From Escherichia coli (GTDB lineage: Bacteria > Pseudomonadota > Gammaproteobacteria > Enterobacterales > Enterobacteriaceae): a stretch of DNA of 64,000 bases. Positions 21,890 through 60,442 of this stretch are shown one piece after another. The DNA is taken from the NCBI RefSeq assembly GCF_046105845.1, contig NZ_CP151004.1. The stretch is one strand, 5' to 3'. Under the pieces are notes generated by a model. It saw only the letters and a program-made list of their open reading frames with translations, had not been told where the DNA came from and did not search any database. Made by a program: the position numbers and the translations under genes. Position 1 is the first letter of the stretch. The number at the start of each line of letters is the position of its first letter.

Positions 21890-22107
21890 CAGAACCTCGC
21901 AAGCCGGTACCCGGGATGCCCCCGTCGTCGTGTAATCAGAGCCGCAAGGCGGCGCTCCCACTCCTGCCGTCCCTGCCGGATCTCAGATAAGTTTTCCATG
22001 GTCATCTGCTGACCATTAAAGGTGACGGATTTTCCGTCCAGCACCGCCATTTCAGCTTCCGTATAACGCTGAATCATGGCTTCGATATCATTCTGGTTCA
22101 TAACCAT
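21889..22107 (-). CDS. head-tail joining protein, lambda W-like
   Basis: 72 aa ending RRRGHPGYRLARF, cf. lambda W C-terminus RRRGPAGFYV. Confidence 0.75.
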   Translation of the reverse strand: MVMNQNDIEAMIQRYTEAEMAVLDGKSVTFNGQQMTMENLSEIRQGRQEWERRLAALITRRRGHPGYRLARF

Positions 22108-24200
22108 CCTCCGGAAGTCAGCCAGGGGTTAACATCGTCAGTTACTGTTTTCTTCCGTTTTTGTTTTTTAACAGGCGTGGATACCGGTTCCGGTGTGGGT
22201 GACGGTTCGGTACTGTCCGGGACACACTCCAGCCAGGTTTCCCGGCTCGCCCACTCCGGTGCATCCGGCCAGCGGATCTTTTCGTATCCATGCAGAATGA
22301 CCAGAGCCTCGGCATACACCATCAGGTCAAAAGCTTCGTTGGCACCGCGACCCGGCTTACTCCATTTCCCGTCACTGCTCCGCTCTTCATACGTCAGTTC
22401 GTCGTAAAACCAGCTCCCCAGCCAGTCAGGGAAATGCACATAGCCGGGACCTGGCGAGTCACGCCATAACGCGTTATTCACCCGGTCTTTCAGGGCATCC
22501 GTCTGAAGAAGCCAGAGCGGTACATCACCTGCGGCCTGCGCCCGTCGGCCCGTTCGTCCGGTGTTATCAGGGAATGTACGGGTGATCAGTTTTGCGCGCC
22601 GGATGCTGTCGCCCTTAAACAGGTAAATACGTTTACCAAGGCCATCACGACGGCAACGACGCCAGAATTTATAGGCATTATCAGTGACTCCGTCTTCACC
22701 GCCGGAGTCCACCGCCATTGCCATCAGTCGCATTTGTTGAGAAGGATCGGAGGCCAGCGGCCAGCTTTTATGAAAAACATCCGTCAGCAGGACATCCCAG
22801 TCTTCCGGATAGCTGGCCGGATCAATTCGCTGGCTCTCCCCGTCGCTGTCACCGCGCAATGACTGCGTGATGTTGTAACGATCAATAATCCAGCGTTCGC
22901 CACGGCTGCCATAGCCCGTTACCTGAACCACAAAACGGCGATGACGTCCCGCCTGCACATCAACTGTCGCCACCAGGAAATTAACGCCATCCGGCACACT
23001 GCGGGAAGGAACTGGCTCTGCCCGCTGCTCAAGCAGTTCACTTTTTCGTTGCTCCATGCTGGCACGGGGAAGATAAGGTAATCCCCAGTCGGTATTGATA
23101 ACCGTCTTGAGTGTTTCTTCACTTCCGGTTGTCTCGTATTCCTGTTCTGCAGCAAGCAGTTTGTAAACGAGTTGCGAGAGTGTCTGGTAAGCAGCTGCCG
23201 GACCCTCCATCCAGAATGACGCAATACGTGAGCGTCGGGGATCACCATAACGACTGCCATCCGCATTGATGGATTCACCATCCCGCAACCAGACCCCACG
23301 TCCGTTCAGCTCACGTTTTTGTTCAGGCATAATCCGTCCTGAACAGGAAGGACACTGAATATAAGCCGCCTCACTTGCCAGCACGGGATCGGCAATATCA
23401 CGGAAACCAGCAACCACATCGCCGCAGGGCTGAAAATACTCACCACAGTGTGGACAGGGCCAGTACCAGCGACGGCGATCGCCACGGTTATAGAGCGACA
23501 GTATCCCCGTGGTTGGTGGAGCCTCATGCGGTGAAGTCCGTCGCCATTTCACATCCTTCACATCCCTGCCGGGGGAACTCTCCACCAGCGTCATACCACT
23601 GGACATAAATGTGGTGGTACGTTTTGAGGCAAGAGAGAAGGCATCCCCCTCGCCATCAATATCTTCCGGAAAACGGTCATAATCCGTCAGCGCCACGCAT
23701 TTATAATCTGATGAGGACATGATATTGACTGACGGCCAGCCGATTTTCAGGTAGTTGCCAGCAAGGAATGTTCTGTCATAAACGTTGTTGTCATTTTTGT
23801 TCGGACTCAGGCGACTGACCACTTCCGGGCTGACGCGAAACGTTCTGGCAAGTCGTTTTTTGGAGTGTTCGCGGGCTTTTTCCTCCGTCATCTGAATGAT
23901 CAGCATATCAGCAGGATCGCAAATCACGTTGTAAATCACCCAGCCGTCAATCAGGCCGATAGTCTTGCCAGTTCGTGCCGGGCCAACAAATATCACTGCG
24001 TCGTATTCACGCGAGGCCAGGCAGTTCATCGGCTCAATAACATACGGTGCCACCAGCGGATCCCACGGGACTGAGTTCCCGGCCCCCATGGGCACCCGCA
24101 TATACTGAGCAACGGCATCAGCAACCCGCATTCGTCTCGGTGCGCGAAGGATATAACCTGAATCGGTTCGTGCTGCCTTTGCGGTTTCCTGATTCAGCAT
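22098..24200 (-). CDS. terminase large subunit (lambda A family)
   Basis: 700 aa; Walker A-like VGPARTGKT near the N-terminus; gene order after the small subunit. Confidence 0.85.
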   Translation of the reverse strand: MLNQETAKAARTDSGYILRAPRRMRVADAVAQYMRVPMGAGNSVPWDPLVAPYVIEPMNCLASREYDAVIFVGPARTGKTIGLIDGWVIYNVICDPADMLIIQMTEEKAREHSKKRLARTFRVSPEVVSRLSPNKNDNNVYDRTFLAGNYLKIGWPSVNIMSSSDYKCVALTDYDRFPEDIDGEGDAFSLASKRTTTFMSSGMTLVESSPGRDVKDVKWRRTSPHEAPPTTGILSLYNRGDRRRWYWPCPHCGEYFQPCGDVVAGFRDIADPVLASEAAYIQCPSCSGRIMPEQKRELNGRGVWLRDGESINADGSRYGDPRRSRIASFWMEGPAAAYQTLSQLVYKLLAAEQEYETTGSEETLKTVINTDWGLPYLPRASMEQRKSELLEQRAEPVPSRSVPDGVNFLVATVDVQAGRHRRFVVQVTGYGSRGERWIIDRYNITQSLRGDSDGESQRIDPASYPEDWDVLLTDVFHKSWPLASDPSQQMRLMAMAVDSGGEDGVTDNAYKFWRRCRRDGLGKRIYLFKGDSIRRAKLITRTFPDNTGRTGRRAQAAGDVPLWLLQTDALKDRVNNALWRDSPGPGYVHFPDWLGSWFYDELTYEERSSDGKWSKPGRGANEAFDLMVYAEALVILHGYEKIRWPDAPEWASRETWLECVPDSTEPSPTPEPVSTPVKKQKRKKTVTDDVNPWLTSGGWL

Positions 24201-24691
24201 TACTCCTCCTGCTGTAATTCCTCCTCATCATCCGCACCTGCTTCGGTCACCCGCAGGGCTATCTGATCGCGCAGATCATCAATAATGGACTGAACACGGC
24301 TCACAGCGGCAGGCTGCAGGCCGCAGTCACGTTCCAGAATATCCGGTAATGTCTCCAGCACCTGCACGACCGCTTTTGCCCAGATGGCAAACTCCCGTCT
24401 GACATCACTGGCCGGAATGAGTTGTGCCGTTTCCTGTTCGAACTTAAGACGCTCACGTTCAGACTGATACCAGGCTTTGCGTTCATGTGGATCCATTTCG
24501 CCCTCAGCAACCGGCGGTGGTAACCCCATAAATTCAGTCAGAATATCGGTCAACCGGTATAGCTTGAGTTTGTCATGTCCACCAGCGGGACGAATGTTTT
24601 TCAGTCTTGCCACGACAGTCTGGCGGTGCAGACCAGATAAAGCCGCCAGTTGATTAATATTCAGCACCAGGTTTTTCAACTCATGATCCAT
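24200..24691 (-). CDS. terminase small subunit (lambda Nu1-like)
   Basis: 163 aa; N-terminal wHTH-like MDHELKNLVLNINQLAALSGLHRQTV; immediately upstream of the large subunit. Confidence 0.7.
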   Translation of the reverse strand: MDHELKNLVLNINQLAALSGLHRQTVVARLKNIRPAGGHDKLKLYRLTDILTEFMGLPPPVAEGEMDPHERKAWYQSERERLKFEQETAQLIPASDVRREFAIWAKAVVQVLETLPDILERDCGLQPAAVSRVQSIIDDLRDQIALRVTEAGADDEEELQQEE

Positions 24692-24699
24692 ATTTCCTC

Positions 24700-24950
24700 C
24701 GGAGAGCTTTAAACATGCATCGTGCGAACAACTTTAAGAAAACGCGTTCGATGTCGAACAAAAAACACTCAATTCGACATACAAAAAACAAACAACCATT
24801 AATAATCAATAAGATGCAAAGATGATGGTGGCCGATAAGAATGCAAAAACTAGCCTTTTTCCGCGACGCTCCCGCCCCGTGGCAGGGCCCCCCCCCAGGG
24901 AGGACCCGACAGCCTGACAACCGTGACGAGCATCTGAAACAGAGCTTTAC
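24700..24950. other. putative lambdoid cos/terminase-binding region
   Basis: Position directly upstream of Nu1-like gene; repeated tcgaac/ttcgacat units followed by A tracts and a G/C-rich block (gggcccccccccaggg). Confidence 0.3.
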
Positions 24951-25244
24951 ATAATGGCGTGGGGATAATTCAGAAGGACATCACAGCATGCCCACACAAA
25001 TTAGTGTGAGTGTCCTGTTTCTTACTACGCGCAGGACTGACGAGCATGAGGGGAAAATACGCGAACCGAAATGCCTTATCTTCAGAAATGCAGCCGGCAT
25101 CCGAACTGGACGATATTGTAAATTCACCTAAATACGAGGCATTGCTGTAGTTGAATTGCAGTACTGTATTAGCCTGACAGTGACAGAATACGATATTGAC
25201 TCTGTCACTTGTGAAATGGTCAGAATGGTTAGCAGTTATGGTGA

Positions 25245-25451
25245 TCAGTCAACCACCAGGGAATAATCCTTCGTATTCTTATCGTGCTTTACTAACGCGG
25301 CCTCAATTGCCCTGAATGCTTCCAGAGATACTTGATGTTCTATACATGCAATTACAACATCCGGGTAACCCATCGAAATGGTGCTATTAAGCATAGTTTT
25401 TACACGAACCTGCTCCTGGGAGGGGGCATCAGTGTATTGATCTTTATGCAT
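25245..25451 (-). CDS. hypothetical small protein at the lambdoid/186-like junction
   Basis: 68-aa ORF with ATG start; no recognisable motif. Confidence 0.3.
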
Positions 25452-25775
25452 TTTGTCGCTCCATGCGTTTGCTCTTCACTTGCGGCTAAAAATATAACGT
25501 CAAATCACTCAGCATGAAAGAGTGAAAGTTTCAGCGCGTTTCCCTTACATAATCTGTCGTTTGTATTCTCTTCAGGCATACCGGAAAGACTAGGTATTGT
25601 CACACAACCAATACCATCGACAATCGAGATTTATATCTATTCGGTAATGTTTAAATATAACAAAACCCCGTAAAAACGAGGTTTATGGGTATTTTGTTGT
25701 CTGAAATTTATGCCGTTTAAAATCATGACGTTAGAAGCACTGTTTTTTAACGATGGCGACAAAATGGCGGCAGCG

Positions 25776-25994
25776 TCAAAGAGAGAGCGCCACCTGTCCT
25801 GATTTCATTGGATGCGGCTGAACCGGATTTGACTCTTTTGGCGTTGCAATCGAACGAACAAAAGTTTCATGGGTTACAAAAGTATGGCTGCAGTTAATAT
25901 TCTGGCACTGGTTGTAACGCTCTTTGGTCAATGAAGATACCTGAAAACTGCTGCGAGTATGGGCGGCACTTCCACACAGTGGGCAAATCATCAT
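25776..25994 (-). CDS. ogr: Ogr/B-family zinc-finger late-gene activator
   Basis: MICPLCGSAAHTRSS...ERYNQCQNINCSHTF, Cys4 pattern as in P2 Ogr. Confidence 0.85.
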   Translation of the reverse strand: MMICPLCGSAAHTRSSFQVSSLTKERYNQCQNINCSHTFVTHETFVRSIATPKESNPVQPHPMKSGQVALSL

Positions 25995-26084
25995 TTTTCG
26001 AGTTCTCCCCATTTTTGCTAAATTCACAATAATGATACCGCATTATTCCATTTTGCAAACTTAAAAGTTCTCCATTGCGAAGAA

Positions 26085-33064: not shown

Positions 33065-33631
33065 TCAGGGGGATTCATTACTCTTATTTGCCGGAAATTT
33101 TCTATAAATTGTGGAAACACCCACATCAAAAATCAGTGCAATACGCTGTCTTGATTCTCCGGCCTCGAGTAAGCGTCCAATCTGTGCCCACTGTTCGGTG
33201 GTCAACTTAGGACGGCGTCCACCTACTCTGCCTTTGTCGCGAGCTGCAGCAATCCCCGCCCTGGTACGTTCAACTATCAGTTCGCGTTCCATTTCAGCCA
33301 GGGCACCCATGACATGAAAAAAGAAACGGCCCATTGGGGTACTGGTATCAATACTGTCAGTCAGGCTTCGGAAATTCACGCCACGCTGGCGCAACTCTTC
33401 TATCAGCGTAACAAGATGCCGCATACTGCGTCCCAACCTGTCCAGCTTCCAGACAACCAGCGTGTCTCCTGCCGATAGTGTCCTGAGTAGTTTTTTCAGC
33501 CCCGGTCTGTCGGACTTAGTGCCACTGATTTTATCCTCAAAAATCCGCTCACATCCCGCGCAGTTCAGTGCATTACGTTGCAAATCGGTGTTCTGGTCAT
33601 TTGTTGACACGCGTACATAGCCAATAAGCAT
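33065..33631 (-). CDS. Pin/Gin/Hin-family DNA invertase
   Basis: MLIGYVRVSTNDQNTDLQRNAL N-terminus at 33631; close to remembered e14 Pin. Confidence 0.9.
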   Translation of the reverse strand: MLIGYVRVSTNDQNTDLQRNALNCAGCERIFEDKISGTKSDRPGLKKLLRTLSAGDTLVVWKLDRLGRSMRHLVTLIEELRQRGVNFRSLTDSIDTSTPMGRFFFHVMGALAEMERELIVERTRAGIAAARDKGRVGGRRPKLTTEQWAQIGRLLEAGESRQRIALIFDVGVSTIYRKFPANKSNESP

Positions 33632-33685
33632 GATCAATCCCCTGAATAAAAACCGTGGATGATGCCAGTTAGCCATTATCTCTGC

Positions 33686-34060
33686 ATTTTCATAAACGTT
33701 GGTTTGGGAGAAGCGGCGAAAAGGGATGTGGGCACAGGAGAAAATCAGATACCGGATATGTCAGCCTGGAAAAGAAATCCGAGTTCTAATCGCTGGAGAA
33801 AATTGCCTGATGGAACCATCATTCAAATGGGAATATCAGCATCAGGACCATTAGGCTCACCTGTAAATATCACCCTGCCGATATCTTTCAGCAATACCAA
33901 TTATTGTGTTGTTGCATCGTACGATAATGCACGGTCAGGTGTGTCAACAATGGTTAGTTTTGCAGCATTGCCTGTTTCACCATCGCAATTTTCCCTGATG
34001 TCATCTGTGACTGAGCAAGGAATAAATCCTTTTGCTTACTGGATTGCTTTTGGAGATTGA
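33686..34060 (+). CDS. alternative tail-fibre C-terminal variable segment, promoterless (expressed only after inversion)
   Basis: Frame open through the crossover site (…VGLGEAAK…); no independent start within the segment. Confidence 0.65.
   Translation: MFINVGLGEAAKRDVGTGENQIPDMSAWKRNPSSNRWRKLPDGTIIQMGISASGPLGSPVNITLPISFSNTNYCVVASYDNARSGVSTMVSFAALPVSPSQFSLMSSVTEQGINPFAYWIAFGD
33687..33712. promoter_or_regulatory. 26-bp inversion crossover site (gix/pix-like), invertase-proximal
   Basis: ttttcataaacgttggtttgggagaa; reverse complement shares 14/14 leading bases with the site at 35536. Confidence 0.8.
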
Positions 34061-34063
34061 TAA

Positions 34064-34483
34064 ATGGACAGATACTTCTATTCACAAAAAGAAAATGGTT
34101 TTTTTACCGATTTAAATAAAGCACCTTCAGATGCTGTTGAGATAACCACGGATGAATGGCTGTTACTACTGGATGGTCAGGATAATGGCATGAAAATAGT
34201 CAGCAATCAGGAGGGATATCCGGTTTTGATAGAGCAACCACCTTTATCAAAAGAAAACCTTATTGCATTGGTGGAGTTGAAAAAAAGAAAACTTATTAAT
34301 GAAGCCAACGAGCACATGAACAGCAGACAATGGCCAGGTAAAGCGGCTATTGGTCGTCTGAAAGGTGAGGAACTGGCGCAATATAATTTATGGCTGGATT
34401 ATCTGGACGCACTGGAACTGGTTGATCCCTCCAGTGCTCCAGATATTGAATGGCCTACGCCTCCGGCAGTTCAGGCCAGATGA
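34064..34483 (+). CDS. alternative tail fibre assembly protein
   Basis: 139 aa ending DIEWPTPPAVQAR, Tfa-family C-terminus. Confidence 0.75.
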   Translation: MDRYFYSQKENGFFTDLNKAPSDAVEITTDEWLLLLDGQDNGMKIVSNQEGYPVLIEQPPLSKENLIALVELKKRKLINEANEHMNSRQWPGKAAIGRLKGEELAQYNLWLDYLDALELVDPSSAPDIEWPTPPAVQAR

Positions 34484-45037: not shown

Positions 45038-46804
45038 ATGAACACCACACTAACACCCGCAGATCTCGATCCCCGTCGGCAGGCCATGCTGCTGTACTTT
45101 CAGGGATACCGCGTAGCCCGCATTGCTGAAATGCTGGGCGAGAAAGTTGCAACCGTTCACAGCTGGAAAAAACGCGACAAGTGGAGTGACTATGGGCCGC
45201 TGGATCAGATGCAGCTCACCACCGCCGCACGCTACTGCCAGCTCATTATGAAGGAGCACAAAGAAGGGAAAGATTTCAAAGAGATTGACCTGCTGGCGCG
45301 CCAGTCGGAGCGCCATGCGCGGATCGGCAAGTTTAACAATGGCGGCAACGAAGCCGACTTAAACCCTAACGTTGCCAACCGCAACAAAGGCCCGCGCCGT
45401 CAGCCGGAAAAGAACGTTTTCACCGATGAACAGATTGAGAAGCTGGAAGAAATCTTCCATTCCTCCATGTTCAACTACCAGCGCCACTGGTGGGAAGCCG
45501 GAAAAACCAACCGCATCCGCAACCTGCTGAAGTCACGCCAGATCGGCGCGACCTTCTATTTTGCCCGTGAAGCCCTGATTGACGCCCTGCTAACCGGGCG
45601 TAACCAGATTTTCCTTTCCGCCAGCAAGGCACAGGCCCACGTCTTTAAGCAGTACATCATCGACTTCGCCAAAGAAGTGGAGGTGGAGCTGAAAGGCGAT
45701 CCGATGGTGCTTCCTAACGGGGCCACGCTGTACTTCCTCGGCACCAATGCCCGCACGGCCCAGAGTTACCACGGCAACCTGTATCTGGATGAATATTTCT
45801 GGATACCGAAATTCCAGGAGCTGCGCAAAGTGGCTTCCGGTATGGCTATTCACAAGAAATGGCGACAGACCTATTTTTCCACGCCATCCAGTCTGACACA
45901 CAGTGCTTATCCGTTCTGGTCCGGTGCGCTGTTCAACCGTGGGCGCAACAGAGCCGATAAGGTGGACATCGACCTGTCCCACAGCAATCTGGCCCCCGGC
46001 CTGCTGTGCGCAGACGGGCAATACCGCCAGATAGTCACCGTGGAAGATGCGGTGCGCGGCGGCTGTAACCTGTTCGACCTTGACCAGTTGCGCATGGAGT
46101 ACAGCCCTGACGAATACCAGAACTTGCTGATGTGCGAGTTCGTGGACGATCTCGCGTCCGTGTTCCCGCTCAGCGAATTGCAGGCGTGCATGGTGGACAG
46201 CTGGGAAGTCTGGACCGACTTTCATGCACTGGCCCTGCGCCCGTTTGGCTGGCGCGAAGTGTGGATCGGTTATGACCCGGCAAAAGGTACGCAGAACGGC
46301 GACAGCGCCGGATGCGTGGTGGTGGCACCGCCAGCCGTGCCAGGCGGTAAGTTCCGCATTCTTGAGCGTCACCAGTGGCGCGGAATGGACTTTCGCGCCC
46401 AGGCTGACGCCATCAAAAAACTGACCGAACAGTACAACGTGACCTATATCGGCATCGACTCAACCGGCGTTGGTCACGGGGTTTACGAGAACGTGAAAGC
46501 GTTTTTTCCTGCCGTCCGGGAGTTTGTCTACAACCCCAACGTTAAAAACGCCCTGGTACTCAAGGCCTACGACATTATCAGCCACCGCCGTCTTGAGTTT
46601 GACGCCGGGCACACCGACATTGCGCAGTCATTCATGGCAATCCGTCGCGCCACCACCGCCAGCGGCAACCGCCCGACCTATGAAGCCAGCCGCAGCGAAG
46701 AAGCCAGCCATGCCGATCTGGCCTGGGCAACAATGCACGCACTGTTTAACGAACCACTGCAGGGCGAGTCCGCCAATACCAGCAATATTGTGGAGATTTT
46801 TTGA
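45038..46804 (+). CDS. P: terminase large (ATPase) subunit (P2 gpP-like)
   Basis: 588 aa, divergent from O. Confidence 0.9.
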   Translation: MNTTLTPADLDPRRQAMLLYFQGYRVARIAEMLGEKVATVHSWKKRDKWSDYGPLDQMQLTTAARYCQLIMKEHKEGKDFKEIDLLARQSERHARIGKFNNGGNEADLNPNVANRNKGPRRQPEKNVFTDEQIEKLEEIFHSSMFNYQRHWWEAGKTNRIRNLLKSRQIGATFYFAREALIDALLTGRNQIFLSASKAQAHVFKQYIIDFAKEVEVELKGDPMVLPNGATLYFLGTNARTAQSYHGNLYLDEYFWIPKFQELRKVASGMAIHKKWRQTYFSTPSSLTHSAYPFWSGALFNRGRNRADKVDIDLSHSNLAPGLLCADGQYRQIVTVEDAVRGGCNLFDLDQLRMEYSPDEYQNLLMCEFVDDLASVFPLSELQACMVDSWEVWTDFHALALRPFGWREVWIGYDPAKGTQNGDSAGCVVVAPPAVPGGKFRILERHQWRGMDFRAQADAIKKLTEQYNVTYIGIDSTGVGHGVYENVKAFFPAVREFVYNPNVKNALVLKAYDIISHRRLEFDAGHTDIAQSFMAIRRATTASGNRPTYEASRSEEASHADLAWATMHALFNEPLQGESANTSNIVEIF

Positions 46805-47862: not shown

Positions 47863-49287
47863 TTACTTACGTGTTTCAACTATATTCAGCCCCTTATAAA
47901 GGCTTTGATGGATATATACAGAACCAGTATTTGGCAACATTAAATCAGCATCTTCACATCGGAATCTAGCCGTACCGGAATTGCCCAACCGGACACCAAT
48001 CACAGAAGCATTAAATAGAGTTTTCATCAATTCACGAGAAGTATAGCGCTTACAAAGGTCAGGCGCTTTCTCTTCAATCTTACTGATGAATTCTTCTGTA
48101 GAATTATATCTATGCTGCGTCTGACGTAAAGATTCCAATAGCTCACCAAAATGAGGGTAGAGCCTTTTGTATTCTTGTTTTAAGTCCTCAACTTTCCAAG
48201 CGCTGTACCGTTCTTCAGCTATTCTAATTATATCCTTTTTTATTTCAGAAGCATTAGCATCACAGCGTTTTTGGCATTCTTGCAAAAACTGAATAACTTC
48301 TCTTGGGCGCAAAAATGTGCGCTTCACCAAATAGTTAAACGGTGAAATACTCCCTCTCATTTCACCTTCCTCAAAAATATCATCTATAGTTATATTTTCC
48401 GGCAATCTGGCGTTCACCATATCTTTCAACAACTCTGGTGTCCAGATTATTTCTTCTTCAATTGCTCGGTGTTTATCTTTATCATCAAATTCCAGCCCTT
48501 GATAAATATCAGAGCGTAAAAATGTTACAATATGAATACCTTTGGCTCTAGTATCAGAATAACTATCATTAATATCTTTTGTTGCCTTCAACAAGCCAAT
48601 CAAAAGGCTTTTGGCATCATCCGATCCATCCCAAGAATCATCTAATCGATCAGTGGCAATTAGCACCCCAATATCTGTACAAATTTCTTTAAGCTCGTCA
48701 AGGATGATTTTTATTATTTGAGGTGTCAATGGTGCTTGCGAAGCATCCTTATTAAACCCCACAGCATATCCGAAAGCCTCAAAATTGAATGAACTTAATC
48801 CCGAGAGTAACTTCCTTGCAGTTCCCAAAGTAGTTGGCGATATACCACCATAGTTATCAGAAACAAATTTTTTAATTCTAGCAAGGGCCTCCCGAGGTCT
48901 TTTCTCTGAAAATTGCCTACCTGACCTAATAATTTCTGCCGCAGCCTCAACAGCTATTGCAAATTTCCAAGCATTACAATGTGCCTGTTCGGGTAACAAC
49001 CCTTGCTCTTGATATTGTTTTAATGCTCCCCAAGCATACTGGTCTGGGGTCATGACATTTACGATAACGTCCTGCCCATATTTTGCTCTTACCAACCTTG
49101 GGAGTTGGGTAAAGATGGATGATTTCCCAGCCCCCTTTCTTCCAAGAAAATGGGCACTATAGAAACTCAGAGCTTGCTCAACTTGAGGAGTATTGATGAA
49201 ATAATCAGCCAACCTTCTATCAGCTTCAGCATCGACAGTACCAAAGTTGAGTCCCTTAACTGTAAGGCCTAACGCATCTAACCGCAC
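47863..49287 (-). CDS. P-loop NTPase of unknown family; accessory cargo between portal gene and cos
   Basis: 474 aa, GTG start with AAGGA RBS; Walker A GRKGAGKSS; possible Walker B LIATDRLDD; AT-rich by eye. Confidence 0.6.
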   Translation of the reverse strand: MRLDALGLTVKGLNFGTVDAEADRRLADYFINTPQVEQALSFYSAHFLGRKGAGKSSIFTQLPRLVRAKYGQDVIVNVMTPDQYAWGALKQYQEQGLLPEQAHCNAWKFAIAVEAAAEIIRSGRQFSEKRPREALARIKKFVSDNYGGISPTTLGTARKLLSGLSSFNFEAFGYAVGFNKDASQAPLTPQIIKIILDELKEICTDIGVLIATDRLDDSWDGSDDAKSLLIGLLKATKDINDSYSDTRAKGIHIVTFLRSDIYQGLEFDDKDKHRAIEEEIIWTPELLKDMVNARLPENITIDDIFEEGEMRGSISPFNYLVKRTFLRPREVIQFLQECQKRCDANASEIKKDIIRIAEERYSAWKVEDLKQEYKRLYPHFGELLESLRQTQHRYNSTEEFISKIEEKAPDLCKRYTSRELMKTLFNASVIGVRLGNSGTARFRCEDADLMLPNTGSVYIHQSLYKGLNIVETRK

Positions 49288-49372: not shown

Positions 49373-49393
49373 CGCTCGTATCCCCGCCACGCC
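49373..49393 (-). other. P2/186-type cos site
   Basis: Reverse strand reads GGCGTGGCGGGGATACGAGCG, cf. remembered P2 cohesive end GGCGAGGCGGGGAAAGCAC. Confidence 0.55.
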
Positions 49394-55955: not shown

Positions 55956-56080
55956 GATGCAACATTCCTCGTTTAATGTTGATTAATCAGGACGAATACG
56001 GATCGTTTGTATTTTGTGAACATCATAAACATACGATCGCATAATGAAATCGTCAAGACAAAAGTTCACTTGGAGTGACC
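55956..56080. promoter_or_regulatory. immunity switch region between apl-like gene and cI
   Basis: Intergenic; imperfect inverted repeat gatcgtttgtat...atacgatc (56001-56039). Confidence 0.4.
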
Positions 56081-56650
56081 ATGAATTTGGAGAAAGGCGG
56101 ACGAGGCGCTATAGAGCGCATGGTAGAAGCATATGGCTTCAAGACTCGACAGGCGTTGTGCGATCACTTAGGAATCTCTAAAAGTACTCTCGCCACACGC
56201 TATATGCGTGACTCATTCCCTGCTGAATGGGTAATCCAGTGCGCACTTGAAACGGGCGCCTCGCTTAACTGGCTCACGACCGGACATGGTTCAAAGCAAA
56301 CTTCAGGTAATACAAATACTATGGAAGTCGTTAAATATGTATTATCTGATGGAACCTTGCAGGAAGATGGTTTTTATATTTTCGATAAAGAATTTCTACC
56401 ATCTACGCTCAAAAATCCGTTTGTAATCACCGATAACAATTCCGTTTTTATTTGCGATAAAGAGTTTAACGATATTCGTGACGGCAAATGGGTAATAAGT
56501 ATTGATGCCGAAGTAACAATCCGCGATATCACTCGTTTACCTGGTGGAAGAATCTTAGTTGAAGGTGGAAATAGGGCTTTCGAATGTAAAAAAGAAGAAA
56601 TCGAAATTATTGGAAAAATTATAAGCATAACAGTTAAGTACTTTGAGTAA
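56081..56650 (+). CDS. cI: CI-type immunity repressor (186 CI-like)
   Basis: ATG at 56081 after GGAG; N-terminal HTH (…AYGFKTRQALCDHLGISKSTLATRY…) and CI-like C-domain. Confidence 0.75.
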   Translation: MNLEKGGRGAIERMVEAYGFKTRQALCDHLGISKSTLATRYMRDSFPAEWVIQCALETGASLNWLTTGHGSKQTSGNTNTMEVVKYVLSDGTLQEDGFYIFDKEFLPSTLKNPFVITDNNSVFICDKEFNDIRDGKWVISIDAEVTIRDITRLPGGRILVEGGNRAFECKKEEIEIIGKIISITVKYFE

Positions 56651-56700
56651 TATAGGAATGTTTTTATGCTTGGTAAAGCATTTGTTGTGGTGTAAAAAAT

Positions 56701-57624
56701 ATGTCAACTCAAAAATTAAAATTTAGCCATATCAAAAACGATCTGAAAGCAATAGTTATGCAGAATCGTGGAGGGCAAAAAGTTATTGAGCGTATACTCC
56801 TAGCCTATGGCTTCAAGTCACGACAGGCATTATGTAATCATCTAGGTATTTCCCAAAGTACTATGGCCAACAGATATGCACGTAATACCTTTCCTGCAGA
56901 TTGGGTTGTTATATGTTCCATAGAAACAGGAGCATCAATTGAATGGTTAGTTCTTGGTTCAGATACTGCTCCTTCATCAGAGCAATATTCTGAAAAACAT
57001 GCCGTTAATGGCCTTTGCAATGAAGTATACATTCCCACTATAAAGTTCGATAATGAAAAACTCATGAATTTTAACCGAGGGGGTAAGGCAACAATAGAAC
57101 GAATTGTCGAGGCTTACGGTTACAAAACGCGCCAAGCATTAGCTGATCACCTAGGTATTTCAAAAAGCACATTAGCCACACGATACATGCGTGACATTTT
57201 TCCTGCAGACTGGGTTTTGCAGTGTGCAATAGAAACGGGCCATTCTATTGAATGGATTTCATTTGGTACAGGAGAAATGAAAAACACAAAAAATAAAGAT
57301 ACTTTAACATTAGTGAAAAAAGTATTAATCAATGGCAAGTTAATAAATGATGGCTCATATTTATTTGACCCATGCTTTCTACCTTCCAATTTAAAAAATG
57401 CATTCGTAGTATCTACCGAAGACTCTGAATTAATATGTGAAATGGGTTTTAAAGATGTACATGATGGTAAGTGGCTAGTAAATATTGATGGAGAGAATTC
57501 ATTTAGAATGATAACTCGACTACCTAAAGGACGAGTTTATATTTCATCCCAAAATCACTCTTTTGAATGTTCGCTTACAGACATTGAGTTTATTGCAAAA
57601 GTTATTATAAGTTGTTTACATTAA
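56701..57624 (+). CDS. CI-repressor paralog with a duplicated N-terminal HTH domain
   Basis: 307 aa; two tandem copies of GG..IER...AYG.K.RQAL..HLGIS.ST.A.RY.R..FPA.WV, then a CI-like C-domain; AT-rich. Confidence 0.6.
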   Translation: MSTQKLKFSHIKNDLKAIVMQNRGGQKVIERILLAYGFKSRQALCNHLGISQSTMANRYARNTFPADWVVICSIETGASIEWLVLGSDTAPSSEQYSEKHAVNGLCNEVYIPTIKFDNEKLMNFNRGGKATIERIVEAYGYKTRQALADHLGISKSTLATRYMRDIFPADWVLQCAIETGHSIEWISFGTGEMKNTKNKDTLTLVKKVLINGKLINDGSYLFDPCFLPSNLKNAFVVSTEDSELICEMGFKDVHDGKWLVNIDGENSFRMITRLPKGRVYISSQNHSFECSLTDIEFIAKVIISCLH

Positions 57625-57649: not shown

Positions 57650-59167
57650 GTGAAATGTGGTGATTGTAATTGGAACTGGGATGAAGAAACTACCTTTATA
57701 TTAGACGACGAAGAGGAAATTCTTTCCAAAGACAAACTTAATCGGAGACACTATGCAGAATATCTATATTTTTATCTTAAGGAAAAGGGGCAAAAGAACA
57801 ACACGGTAATCAACCTTAATGCAGAATGGGGAGCTGGTAAAAGTTTTTTCATAAAGAGATTTTATAACTCAATAAAAGATGCACACCCATGCGTTTACAT
57901 TGATGCCTGGAAGCAAGACTTTTCTGATGATGCATTTTTAACCCTTTTTTCTTCTTTGTCACAACAATTGCAAACATATGCAGGAAAACTTGATGCTCGA
58001 TTGATACAAAGCGGCCATGCTATCGGACGCTTTACAAAAGGTGTTCTACCTGAAATCATATCTGGCCTAATCAAGACTTATGCAGGAGTAGATAACGTAG
58101 GTGATATAGCCAAAGAAGCCTCATTAATAATGCTGAAGGAACACCAGGAAAAACTGAAGAGCATTAAGGTATTAAAAAAAGAACTAACGTTATGGTCTAG
58201 GTTGGCATATGAAAATAGTTTTTCATGTCCTATATTTATCTTTATAGATGAATTAGACAGATGCAGGCCAGATTATGCAATTTCTCTTTTAGAGATTGTT
58301 AAACATATATTCGATATTAAAAATTTTGTCTTTATTATTGCTACTGACACAGATCAATTACAACATTCAATCAAGAATGTTTACGGTAATGATTTTTCCG
58401 CAAATGACTATTTAGGCCGTTTTTTTCATAGAAGATTTACTTTAAAACAACCTGAACTTAAAGATTTAATTAATGGTGTTATTGGTGATTATATTGGTAC
58501 CGATTTTGAAAATATCACATCAAAAACATACCCACTAACAGCAACATTAGAAGACTTTTCAATAAATATTTCCAACGTATTTGAAGCATTTGGGTTAAAT
58601 CTAAGAGACTCAATCCGAAATACTGAAAGGTTAATAGACATTCTTAAATCTGATTTAGTCAAAAAGAAAGTAGATTATATTTTTATAATTTCGCTAATGA
58701 TTATATATGATAAGGATCGTCAAATTATAGATGGACTAATTGGTCGAAGAAATGCAGCACAACGTTTCACTGATTCGATAAAGCAAAGCTCCAATTTAAA
58801 AGGTGTTTCTCAAGCCATCCTTGAATTAAATCTTGATACAAATCAGCAAAGAATAGGTGTCAATTATATCTATAGAACGGCGAGCAGTAGATTATTCATC
58901 TCACAGATCGAGCCCAAAATAAATTTAACATTAATAAATTACTTAGATGTTGCATTGTATTTTATTAATAATATAAACATGCTTAAATCAAGTATAAAAA
59001 ACAATGGGCAAAATTCACTAATGATTATATCTCAACAAGGCCCTATTGATGGTGATACAGCTATAAAGTATTTGCAAGGAGCCCTTATAGAGAATGGTCT
59101 GAATACATCTTTTTATGCCTTACATAATTACATTGAATTAATTGAACTGGCCACATCATTTGATTAA
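57650..59167 (+). CDS. KAP-family P-loop NTPase
   Basis: 505 aa, GTG start after GGAG; Walker A NAEWGAGKS; Walker B IFIFIDELDRCRPDY; AT-rich by eye. Confidence 0.7.
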   Translation: MKCGDCNWNWDEETTFILDDEEEILSKDKLNRRHYAEYLYFYLKEKGQKNNTVINLNAEWGAGKSFFIKRFYNSIKDAHPCVYIDAWKQDFSDDAFLTLFSSLSQQLQTYAGKLDARLIQSGHAIGRFTKGVLPEIISGLIKTYAGVDNVGDIAKEASLIMLKEHQEKLKSIKVLKKELTLWSRLAYENSFSCPIFIFIDELDRCRPDYAISLLEIVKHIFDIKNFVFIIATDTDQLQHSIKNVYGNDFSANDYLGRFFHRRFTLKQPELKDLINGVIGDYIGTDFENITSKTYPLTATLEDFSINISNVFEAFGLNLRDSIRNTERLIDILKSDLVKKKVDYIFIISLMIIYDKDRQIIDGLIGRRNAAQRFTDSIKQSSNLKGVSQAILELNLDTNQQRIGVNYIYRTASSRLFISQIEPKINLTLINYLDVALYFINNINMLKSSIKNNGQNSLMIISQQGPIDGDTAIKYLQGALIENGLNTSFYALHNYIELIELATSFD

Positions 59168-59253: not shown

Positions 59254-60306
59254 ATGGCAGTACGAAAACTCACCACAGGAAAATGGCTTTGCGAATGTTA
59301 CCCCGCCGGACGTAGTGGGCGTCGTGTGCGTAAACAATTCGCCACCAAAGGCGAAGCACTGGCTTTTGAGCGTCACACGATGGAAGAAACCGAAGCAAAG
59401 CCCTGGCTGGGTGAATCAGTGGATCGTCGAACACTGAAAGACGTGGTTGAGCTATGGTTCAAACTACATGGTAAATCTCTGACTGCTGGGCAGCATGTCT
59501 ATGACAAATTGCTGCTGATGGTTGACGCTCTGGGCAATCCCCTTGCAACTGATCTAACCTCTAAAATGTTTGCCCACTATCGAGATAAACGCCTGACAGG
59601 TGAGATCTACTTCAGTGAGAAATGGAAGAAAGGAGCAAGCCCGGTCACCATTAACCTGGAGCAAAGCTATCTAAGTAGTGTTTTTAGCGAACTATCCCGC
59701 CTGGGCGAATGGTCGTATCCGAACCCACTGGAGAACATGCGAAAATTCACCATCGCAGAAAAAGAGATGGCATGGCTTACCCATGAGCAGATTGTTGAAT
59801 TACTAGCTGATTGCAAACGTCAGGACCCAATTCTGGCACTGGTAGTTAAGATATGCTTAAGCACAGGCGCACGCTGGCGAGAAGCCGTAAATCTTACCCG
59901 CTCACAGGTGACCAAATACCGAATTACCTTTGTAAGAACGAAGGGGAAGAAAAACAGAAGCATCCCTATCAGTAAAGAGCTTTACGAAGAGATCATGGCG
60001 CTTGATGGGTTCAATTTCTTCACAGACTGCTATTTTCAATTTTTATCCGTGATGGAAAAAACGTCTATCGTGCTCCCTCGCGGTCAACTCACACACGTTC
60101 TGCGCCATACGTTTGCGGCGCACTTCATGATGTCGGGTGGAAACATTCTGGCTTTACAAAAAATTCTCGGACACCACGATATAAAAATGACTATGCGTTA
60201 CGCACATCTGGCACCGGATCATCTGGAAACGGCGCTCCGTTTCAATCCTCTGGCAACGCTGCCAAGTGGCGACAAAGTGGCGGCAGCGGTTGGCATTACC
60301 CCGTAA
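59254..60306 (+). CDS. int: tyrosine integrase (P2/186 Int family)
   Basis: MAVRKLTTGKWLCECYPAGRSGRRVRKQFATKGEALAFE; LSTGARW; HxLRH; terminal Y region MRYAH. Confidence 0.9.
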   Translation: MAVRKLTTGKWLCECYPAGRSGRRVRKQFATKGEALAFERHTMEETEAKPWLGESVDRRTLKDVVELWFKLHGKSLTAGQHVYDKLLLMVDALGNPLATDLTSKMFAHYRDKRLTGEIYFSEKWKKGASPVTINLEQSYLSSVFSELSRLGEWSYPNPLENMRKFTIAEKEMAWLTHEQIVELLADCKRQDPILALVVKICLSTGARWREAVNLTRSQVTKYRITFVRTKGKKNRSIPISKELYEEIMALDGFNFFTDCYFQFLSVMEKTSIVLPRGQLTHVLRHTFAAHFMMSGGNILALQKILGHHDIKMTMRYAHLAPDHLETALRFNPLATLPSGDKVAAAVGITP

Positions 60307-60442
60307 TAACCACCACTGACCACCAACCCAACTTATTGTTTTTACTCTAAGTTATTGTTTTCATTAACCCGTTTACATAAATGGGTAATTTGTATTGTTG
60401 AATAGCATCTGATGAGAAATTGATGCTAATATTATAAACATA

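Follow-up and report, generated by a model that had tools for sequence, protein, structure and literature searches.

Among the lambdoid phages, the R3-I1-R2-R1 order of the cosB segment, with R2 inverted, has been described for lambda, phi80, 21 and Gifsy-1 (PMC9026076), and the last of these combines a cosB of this kind with lambda-like cohesive ends (Feiss laboratory; PMC4669245, PMC9026076). The I2 segment of lambda is a static bend of A/T tracts covering bp 18–50 and is required for initiation (PMC4856287), while positions 7–12 of cosN are known to be naturally variable (Feiss laboratory; PMC4669245). For phage LLS, which is of the mEp213 type, a 12-nt cohesive site has been annotated at the place homologous to the one described here and is credited to an analysis by M. 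Feiss (PMC12315714).

The DNA analyzed here is a 64-kb stretch of an Escherichia coli genome, referred to as the window. Within it, the region 24700–24910 is very probably the cos site of a lambdoid prophage of the Gifsy-2/mEp460 type. It lies on the minus strand and would follow the plan of lambda, and by comparison with related phages its elements can with equal confidence be read in the order cosQ, cosN, I2, cosB (a candidate R3, I1, R2 inverted, R1), terS and terL. The suggestion made from the sequence-only reading, that a packaging site lies upstream of the Nu1-like gene, is thus supported, with a lambda-type cos directly upstream of terS and terL. This cos adds one more member to a class already known, that of the lambda-like sites, with a textbook lambda architecture that changes no concept. 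Its description fixes the likely genome ends and packaging signals of a lambdoid head module found widely in E. coli, and it may be of use for prophage annotation and genome orientation; the cosQ–cosN type of the window was matched in 2,032 of 5,426 complete E. coli genomes. Positions given below in bp are counted from the predicted left end, bp n being window position 24878 − n.

The large terminase gene, terL (24200..22098, minus strand), encodes a 700-aa protein of the lambda gpA family containing both GpA_ATPase (PF05876, 8.6e-72) and GpA_nuclease (PF20454, 1.2e-85) domains, and it aligns with lambda gpA at 25% identity over 623 residues (BLASTP, E 4e-19). Membership of the gpA family indicates a terminase of the type that produces 5′ cohesive ends and not of the headful type, and packaging from a pac site was rejected on this ground. 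Downstream of terL lie a portal gene and a fusion of ClpP-protease and capsid (phrog_133), which together represent a head module of the Gifsy-2 type. These head genes with their protease-capsid fusion differ from those of lambda.

The small terminase gene, terS (24691..24200, minus strand), overlaps terL by one base and is preceded by the ribosome-binding site GGAGG (24700..24696, minus strand). Its ATG lies 186 nt from the predicted left end, at bp 187, which compares with 190 nt for Nu1 of lambda (bp 191). The 163-aa product belongs to DUF1441 (Pfam, 4.6e-44) and to phrog_141 (2.7e-77), the latter being labelled "terminase small subunit". It had been called Nu1-like beforehand, a description that fits by its position and weakly by its predicted fold but not by its sequence, given that the protein falls in DUF1441 instead of Phage_Nu1 and that BLASTP returned no alignment with lambda Nu1 at E ≤ 100. 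A sequence search of the PDB with TerS and TerL gave no significant match. The AlphaFold2 model of TerS (pLDDT 78) has a strand-helix-helix-wing-helix arrangement at residues 9–56 followed by long helices, and its top Foldseek matches were MerR-type winged-helix proteins, RacA, BldC and 6hn7_B, a chain from a PICI/TerS study, all of them weak (E 0.07–0.2). From this model it is plausible that TerS works like Nu1.

Upstream of these genes, a heptamer GGGTCCT identical to cosQ of lambda, the packaging-termination signal, was found at 24907..24901 on the minus strand. The lambda copy was counted at 48473–48479 of J02459, and in both phages 23 nt separate the heptamer from the nick, which is predicted in the case of the window. 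The heptamer is kept in all of the E. coli-type relatives. It is followed by the predicted 12-nt 5′ cohesive end GGGCGGGAGCGT, the core of cosN, at 24877..24866 on the minus strand, which matches the GGGCGGCGACCT of lambda at 8 of 12 bases; the left half is identical (6/6), with the differences at positions 7, 8, 9 and 11. We infer nicks at 24878/24877 on the terS-sense strand and at 24866/24865 on the other strand, and the CG flanking both of these predicted nicks is kept (ACG/GGGCGGGAGCGT/CGCGG, with a slash marking each nick). On the minus strand the window reads ...GCTGTC GGGTCCT CCCTGGGGGGGGGCCCTGCCACG / GGGCGGGAGCGT / CGCGGAAAAAGGCTAGTTTTTGC..., and the corresponding sequence of lambda is ...TTTAC GGGTCCT TTCCGGTGATCCGACAGGTTACG / GGGCGGCGACCT / CGCGGGTTTTCGC..., so that the two align as CGGGTCCT-N23-/GGGCGGGAGCGT/CGCGG and CGGGTCCT-N23-/GGGCGGCGACCT/CGCGG, respectively. 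Two-fold symmetry at cosN extends to 12 of 22 positions in the window against 10 of 22 in lambda. The pattern GGGTCCT-N20-ACGGGGCGG has a single match in the 64-kb window, with 0 mismatches, where 0.02 matches of the combined cosQ/cosN pattern would be expected by chance with 2 mismatches permitted. Phages cdtI (AB285204) and Tritos (OV696610) have GenBank records that open with GGGCGGGAGCGTCGCGGAAAAAGGC, and so with the GGGCGGGAGCGT 12-mer, and close with ...CCACG, a choice of record start that may itself have been made by analogy with lambda.

Between cosQ and cosN lies a G/C-rich spacer of 23 nt, CCCTGGGGGGGGGCCCTGCCACG (24900..24878, minus strand), containing a run of nine G residues at 24896..24888 that appears as C9 on the plus strand. 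The G/C-rich block gggcccccccccaggg, which had been picked out earlier at 24885–24900 (plus strand) as lying where cosB or cosN would be expected, is present there. It was rejected as cosN, given that it sits between cosQ and the predicted nick; it represents the spacer, with cosN adjoining it. The homologous spacer of the relatives is also G-rich, CCCGGTGGGGTGGCCTGCCACG, and is 22 nt long, so in its length the window spacer agrees with that of lambda and not with that of its own family. The one relative whose sequence was read directly, an E. coli prophage of 99.9% identity, has eight G residues, and among the matches listed from the 5,426 complete E. coli genomes the best full-length ones lack one base relative to the G9 copy. 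The 81-nt cosQ–cosN segment with G9 had no full-length exact copy in these genomes, and an exact-pattern scan of IMG/VR viral contigs gave no G7–G11 spacer variants. As the near-identical prophage has G8 and no exact match to the G9 form was found, the additional G is either a private slippage variant or a homopolymer sequencing error.

The additional G also bears on a different reading, according to which the cos is genuine by descent and is no longer functional in this host, the site having been spoiled by the longer spacer or stranded by a second prophage. The second prophage is of the P2/186 family, is approximately 34.7 kb in length and lies inside the lambdoid prophage at 25685–60393, 0.8 kb upstream of cosN. 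Its 186-like sequence, at approximately 25698–60380 and flanked by 13-bp cores, would add 34.7 kb to the cos-to-cos packaging unit, and with the lambdoid prophage split in this way the window cos may no longer be used in its host. On the other side, every recognisable sub-site of cos is intact, the 23-nt spacing is also that of lambda, full-length terS and terL are present, with 100% and ~99.9% identity, respectively, to genes of viable phages, and, with its integrase and intact att cores, the nested prophage could excise. Loss of function is considered unlikely, and the window copy of the lambda-type cos may still be in use.

For the examination of cosB, the interval from cos to the ATG was aligned for 15 related phages retrieved via their small-terminase genes. 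The comparison with the cos regions of sequenced lambdoid phages had been proposed at the outset, and on this alignment cosQ, cosN, I2 and I1 of the window are homologous to those of the relatives and lie at matching positions. Following cosN is an I2-like segment, AAAAAGGCTAGTTTTTGCATTCTTATCGG, with A5 and T5 tracts (24860..24828, minus strand, bp 18–50), in which the conserved motif CGCGG(A/G)AA..GGC...TTTTT is common to all of the relatives aligned. By analogy with lambda, this segment would function as I2. Next is a candidate for R3, GGCCACCATCATC (24833..24821, minus strand, bp 45–57), which is the weakest of the assignments and was made by position, the relatives having a block of the (G/A)TCATCATCATC type at bp 43–57 where R3 would lie, and R3 of lambda being at bp 50–65. 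With a matrix built from the relatives, its score in the window reaches only the top 1%.

A predicted IHF site resembling I1 lies at 24816..24804 on the minus strand (bp 62–74). Its sequence, AATCAATAAGATG on the plus strand, has 1 mismatch to the consensus WATCAANNNNTTR and is the sole match with ≤1 mismatch between cosN and the terS ATG. An IHF-consensus match of this quality (≤1 mismatch) occurs at bp 61–65 on the same strand in 13 of the 15 related sequences, six of these matches being perfect, and in most of the sequences there is no other.

Beyond I1 lie the repeats that had first drawn attention to the region, namely tcgaac and ttcgacat units followed by A tracts, which are present on the plus strand at 24745–24795 as gcgttcgatgtcgaacaaaaaacactcaattcgacatacaaaaaacaaacaa. 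They had been placed at cosB/cosN, and of this placement the cosB part holds, since the repeats represent R2-like and R1-like sites. The predicted R2-like small-terminase site, AATTCGACATA, is at 24771..24781 on the plus strand (bp 97–107) and forms one arm of an inverted repeat, being inverted relative to the R1′-like site, TGTTCGACATC, which is predicted at 24760..24750 on the minus strand (bp 118–128). A T6 tract is found just before each of the two sites, for the R2-like site on the terS-sense strand, and the R1′-like site also forms part of a small palindrome, GTTCGA-CA-TCGAAC. A repeat search showed the arms to contain a perfect 8-nt inverted repeat, ATGTCGAA and TTCGACAT, at 24751–24758 and 24773–24780 with a gap of 14 nt, and the A-rich flanks form a 15-nt direct repeat, ACAAAAAACA(C/A)(T/A)CAA, at 24758–24772 and 24781–24795. 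A fourth conserved element, GTTCGCACGATGC, was found at 24729..24717 on the minus strand (bp 149–161), the position of R1 in lambda; its core AAAGTTGTTCGCA(C/A)GATGCATGTTTAAA is common to the window and the mEp460-type phages, though the remaining cosB differs between them.

Taken on its own, the inverted repeat is marginally beyond chance. When the 159-nt segment was shuffled, an equally good repeat arose 8% of the time (p = 0.08), and the window holds 3 copies of TTCGACAT where 2.3 would be expected. These figures would suit an explanation in which both the repeats and the G/C block arose by chance in intergenic DNA rich in A/T, with packaging proceeding by another route. Taken together with the comparative data, the repeat is well beyond chance. 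A weight matrix was built from the equivalent sites of the other phages only, with the window left out, and approximately 128,000 positions were scored in the 64-kb window; the top score of the whole window fell at 24750–24760 (minus strand), and 24771–24781 (plus strand) ranked 37th. With this score, the relatives' alignment, the unique cosQ/cosN pattern, the position of the IHF site and the gpA-family terminase, the explanation by chance is strongly disfavoured and is held to be extremely improbable, and the repeats are again taken to be R sites of cosB.

The R motif was tested by this leave-window-out matrix and by per-genome inverted-repeat tests in place of an unbiased 8-mer enrichment across the cosB of ten relatives, which had been dominated by A/T-rich words and CATCATCA and had not cleanly defined the motif. 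The per-genome test recovered lambda's own R2/R1 pair. In the window, the inverted pair (ATGTCGAA) occupies bp 98–105 and 120–127, in Gifsy-2 bp 95–106 and 122–133 (TTCAGTGTCGAA, p < 0.005) and in Fels-1 bp 93–102 and 119–128 (AAGATGATGA, p < 0.005). The distance of the pair from cosN is thus conserved in the three while the sequence is different in each, and by this comparison the position of the inverted R pair is conserved across the relatives. Both arms change together between phages, as would be expected if the sites follow changes in the protein that binds them.

The same repeats could also be viewed as a regulatory element of terS or a small terminator hairpin instead of terminase sites. 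They lie 60–110 nt upstream of the terS start codon, and at 24760..24745 on the minus strand a terminator scan reported a hairpin resembling a terminator, with TGTTCGACATCGAACG and then CGTTTTCTTA. The stem of this hairpin is short, however, with 6 pairs, and in the relatives it is the inverted pair and its spacing from cosN that are conserved and not the hairpin. No Rfam family was matched in 24400–25900 (E ≤ 1), a promoter scan gave no sigma-70-like site on the terS strand, and the repeat region diverges together with the DNA-binding domain of TerS (see below). A purely regulatory role for ATGTCGAA and TTCGACAT is accordingly regarded as improbable, and binding by the small terminase is preferred. 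The fourth element, which lies just upstream of the ribosome-binding site, may also let TerS regulate its own synthesis.

By analogy with lambda, packaging at this site might proceed as follows. IHF would bend the DNA at I1 (24816..24804), and the winged-helix N-terminal domains of the DUF1441 TerS would bind the two R sites of the TTCGACAT type (24780..24772 and 24760..24750). The CATCATC block at 24833..24821 would probably be bound by them as well. The T tracts beside the R sites and the A5 and T5 tracts of I2 would probably provide intrinsic bends or minor-groove contacts. Bound in this way, TerS would anchor the gpA-type large terminase on cosN, 45–130 bp away, where nicks staggered by 12 bp would give the 5′ extension GGGCGGGAGCGT. 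After one genome had been pumped in, cosQ, 23 nt upstream of the nick, and cosN would signal the terminating cut.

The window thus shares with lambda the cosQ heptamer and its 23-nt distance from the nick, 8 of 12 cohesive-end bases with their flanking CG, a segment like I2 with A/T tracts, a predicted IHF site that has a block at the R3 position on one side and an inverted R2-like site on the other, a gpA-family large terminase and a terS start at a similar distance (186 nt in the window, 190 nt in lambda). It differs in its R sites, which are of the TTCGACAT type instead of CGTTTCC(T/G)TTCT, in the gap between R2 and R1′, which is 14 nt against 26 nt between R2 and R1 in lambda, and in its terminase proteins, with a DUF1441 TerS lacking detectable similarity to Nu1 and a TerL of 25% identity.

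Other close systems are those of the mEp460-type phages, including Ayreon and 569R4, the mEp213-type phages, including LLS, and Gifsy-1, Gifsy-2 and Fels-1. All of these share the DUF1441 TerS family and the cos architecture with the window, including the positions of I1 and of the inverted R pair. They differ in the sequences of the R sites, for example TTCGCCAC and TTCATCAC in the mEp460 type, in the N-terminal 55 residues of TerS and at 1–4 positions of the cohesive end, which in LLS is GGGCGGCGCGCT. Also close are PhiR40.1 (PV340560), PhiR47.1 (PV340566) and PhiR55.1 (PV340571), infective phages from a phage-defence study, whose TerS is 100% identical to that of the window. Of their cosB segments, that of PhiR40.1 was compared and has 3 differences from the window, all of them away from the proposed sites; the spacer of this phage has the 22-nt GGTGGGGTGG form and not G9. 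This spacer form was also observed in other relatives.

In lambda and phage 21, the specificities of cosB and the small terminase go together. To a similar effect, the cosB of the window and the DNA-binding region of its TerS have, on sequence comparison, diverged together. Against the mEp460-type phage 569R4, the DNA is 100% identical at cosN, 47–57% over 24845–24746, 78–88% over the fourth element (24729..24717) and the ribosome-binding site, 68–82% across the first third of terS and ~100% from 24490 through terL. In the TerS protein, the N-terminal ~55 residues differ from those of 569R4 and the remaining ~110 are identical. A sharp mosaic boundary was observed at 24490–24845, in which cosB and the first ~55 codons of terS are divergent with ~100% identity on both sides. 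Phages cdtI and Tritos are near-identical to the window from cosQ through bp ~38, but past ~bp 38 they have an unrelated cosB, and their TerS shares only 42% identity with that of the window, which points to a different packaging specificity on the same cosQ/cosN. The joint divergence from 569R4 and the pattern in cdtI and Tritos suggest that cosB and the TerS DNA-binding region are inherited as one unit, and the mosaic has the appearance of a packaging-specificity cassette exchanged by recombination. It is tentatively proposed that the cosB of the window (TTCGACAT R sites, CATCATC and the fourth element) together with the ~55 residues of TerS makes up a distinct, uncharacterised cassette of this kind, which recombination could exchange for the mEp460-type cassette on an otherwise identical backbone of cosQ/cosN and terminase. 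The window-type and mEp460-type cassettes would then constitute a natural pair on this backbone, with which packaging specificity might be studied in a family of small terminases having no sequence relation to Nu1.

A number of further observations were made on the nested P2/186-family prophage. Its insertion between gnsB and a ybcW-like gene separates cos from the lysis genes; elsewhere in E. coli, the lambdoid prophage is seen to be continuous from Q and the lysis genes via gnsB to cos. The insertion site is unoccupied in E. coli JNEC-KY175, and the junction of the nested prophage was found in none of the 5,426 complete E. coli genomes. At its junctions lie the two copies of the 13-bp core, ACAAAATACCCAT at 25697..25685 and ACAAATTACCCAT at 60393..60381, both on the minus strand, the former directly abutted by a bidirectional terminator-like hairpin, AAACCTCGTTTTTACGGGGTTT (25663–25689). 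Its genes include ogr (26027..25776, minus strand), tail genes, terminase P (45038–46804), two paralogues of a 186-type CI repressor (56075–57624) and the integrase (59254–60306).

Downstream of the P2-like portal and terminase genes of this prophage is a second cos-like sequence, GGCGTGGCGGGGATACGAG, of the P2/186 type (approximately 49375–49393, minus strand); the cos of 186 is GGCGTGGCGGGGAAAGCAT. If it is indeed a 186-type cos, two different cos systems would be present in the window. An ORF of 474 aa without a Pfam match (47863–49287, minus strand) occupies the interval from the portal gene to the P2-type cos, the position of old/tin in P2, and a 505-aa KAP-family P-loop NTPase (57650–59167, plus strand) adjoins the integrase; both look like cargo and are candidate anti-phage genes. 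A DNA invertase with Resolvase and HTH_7 domains (33065–34483) was also found in the nested prophage beside oppositely oriented tail-fibre assembly genes, which suggests an invertible switch of tail fibres and hence of host range.
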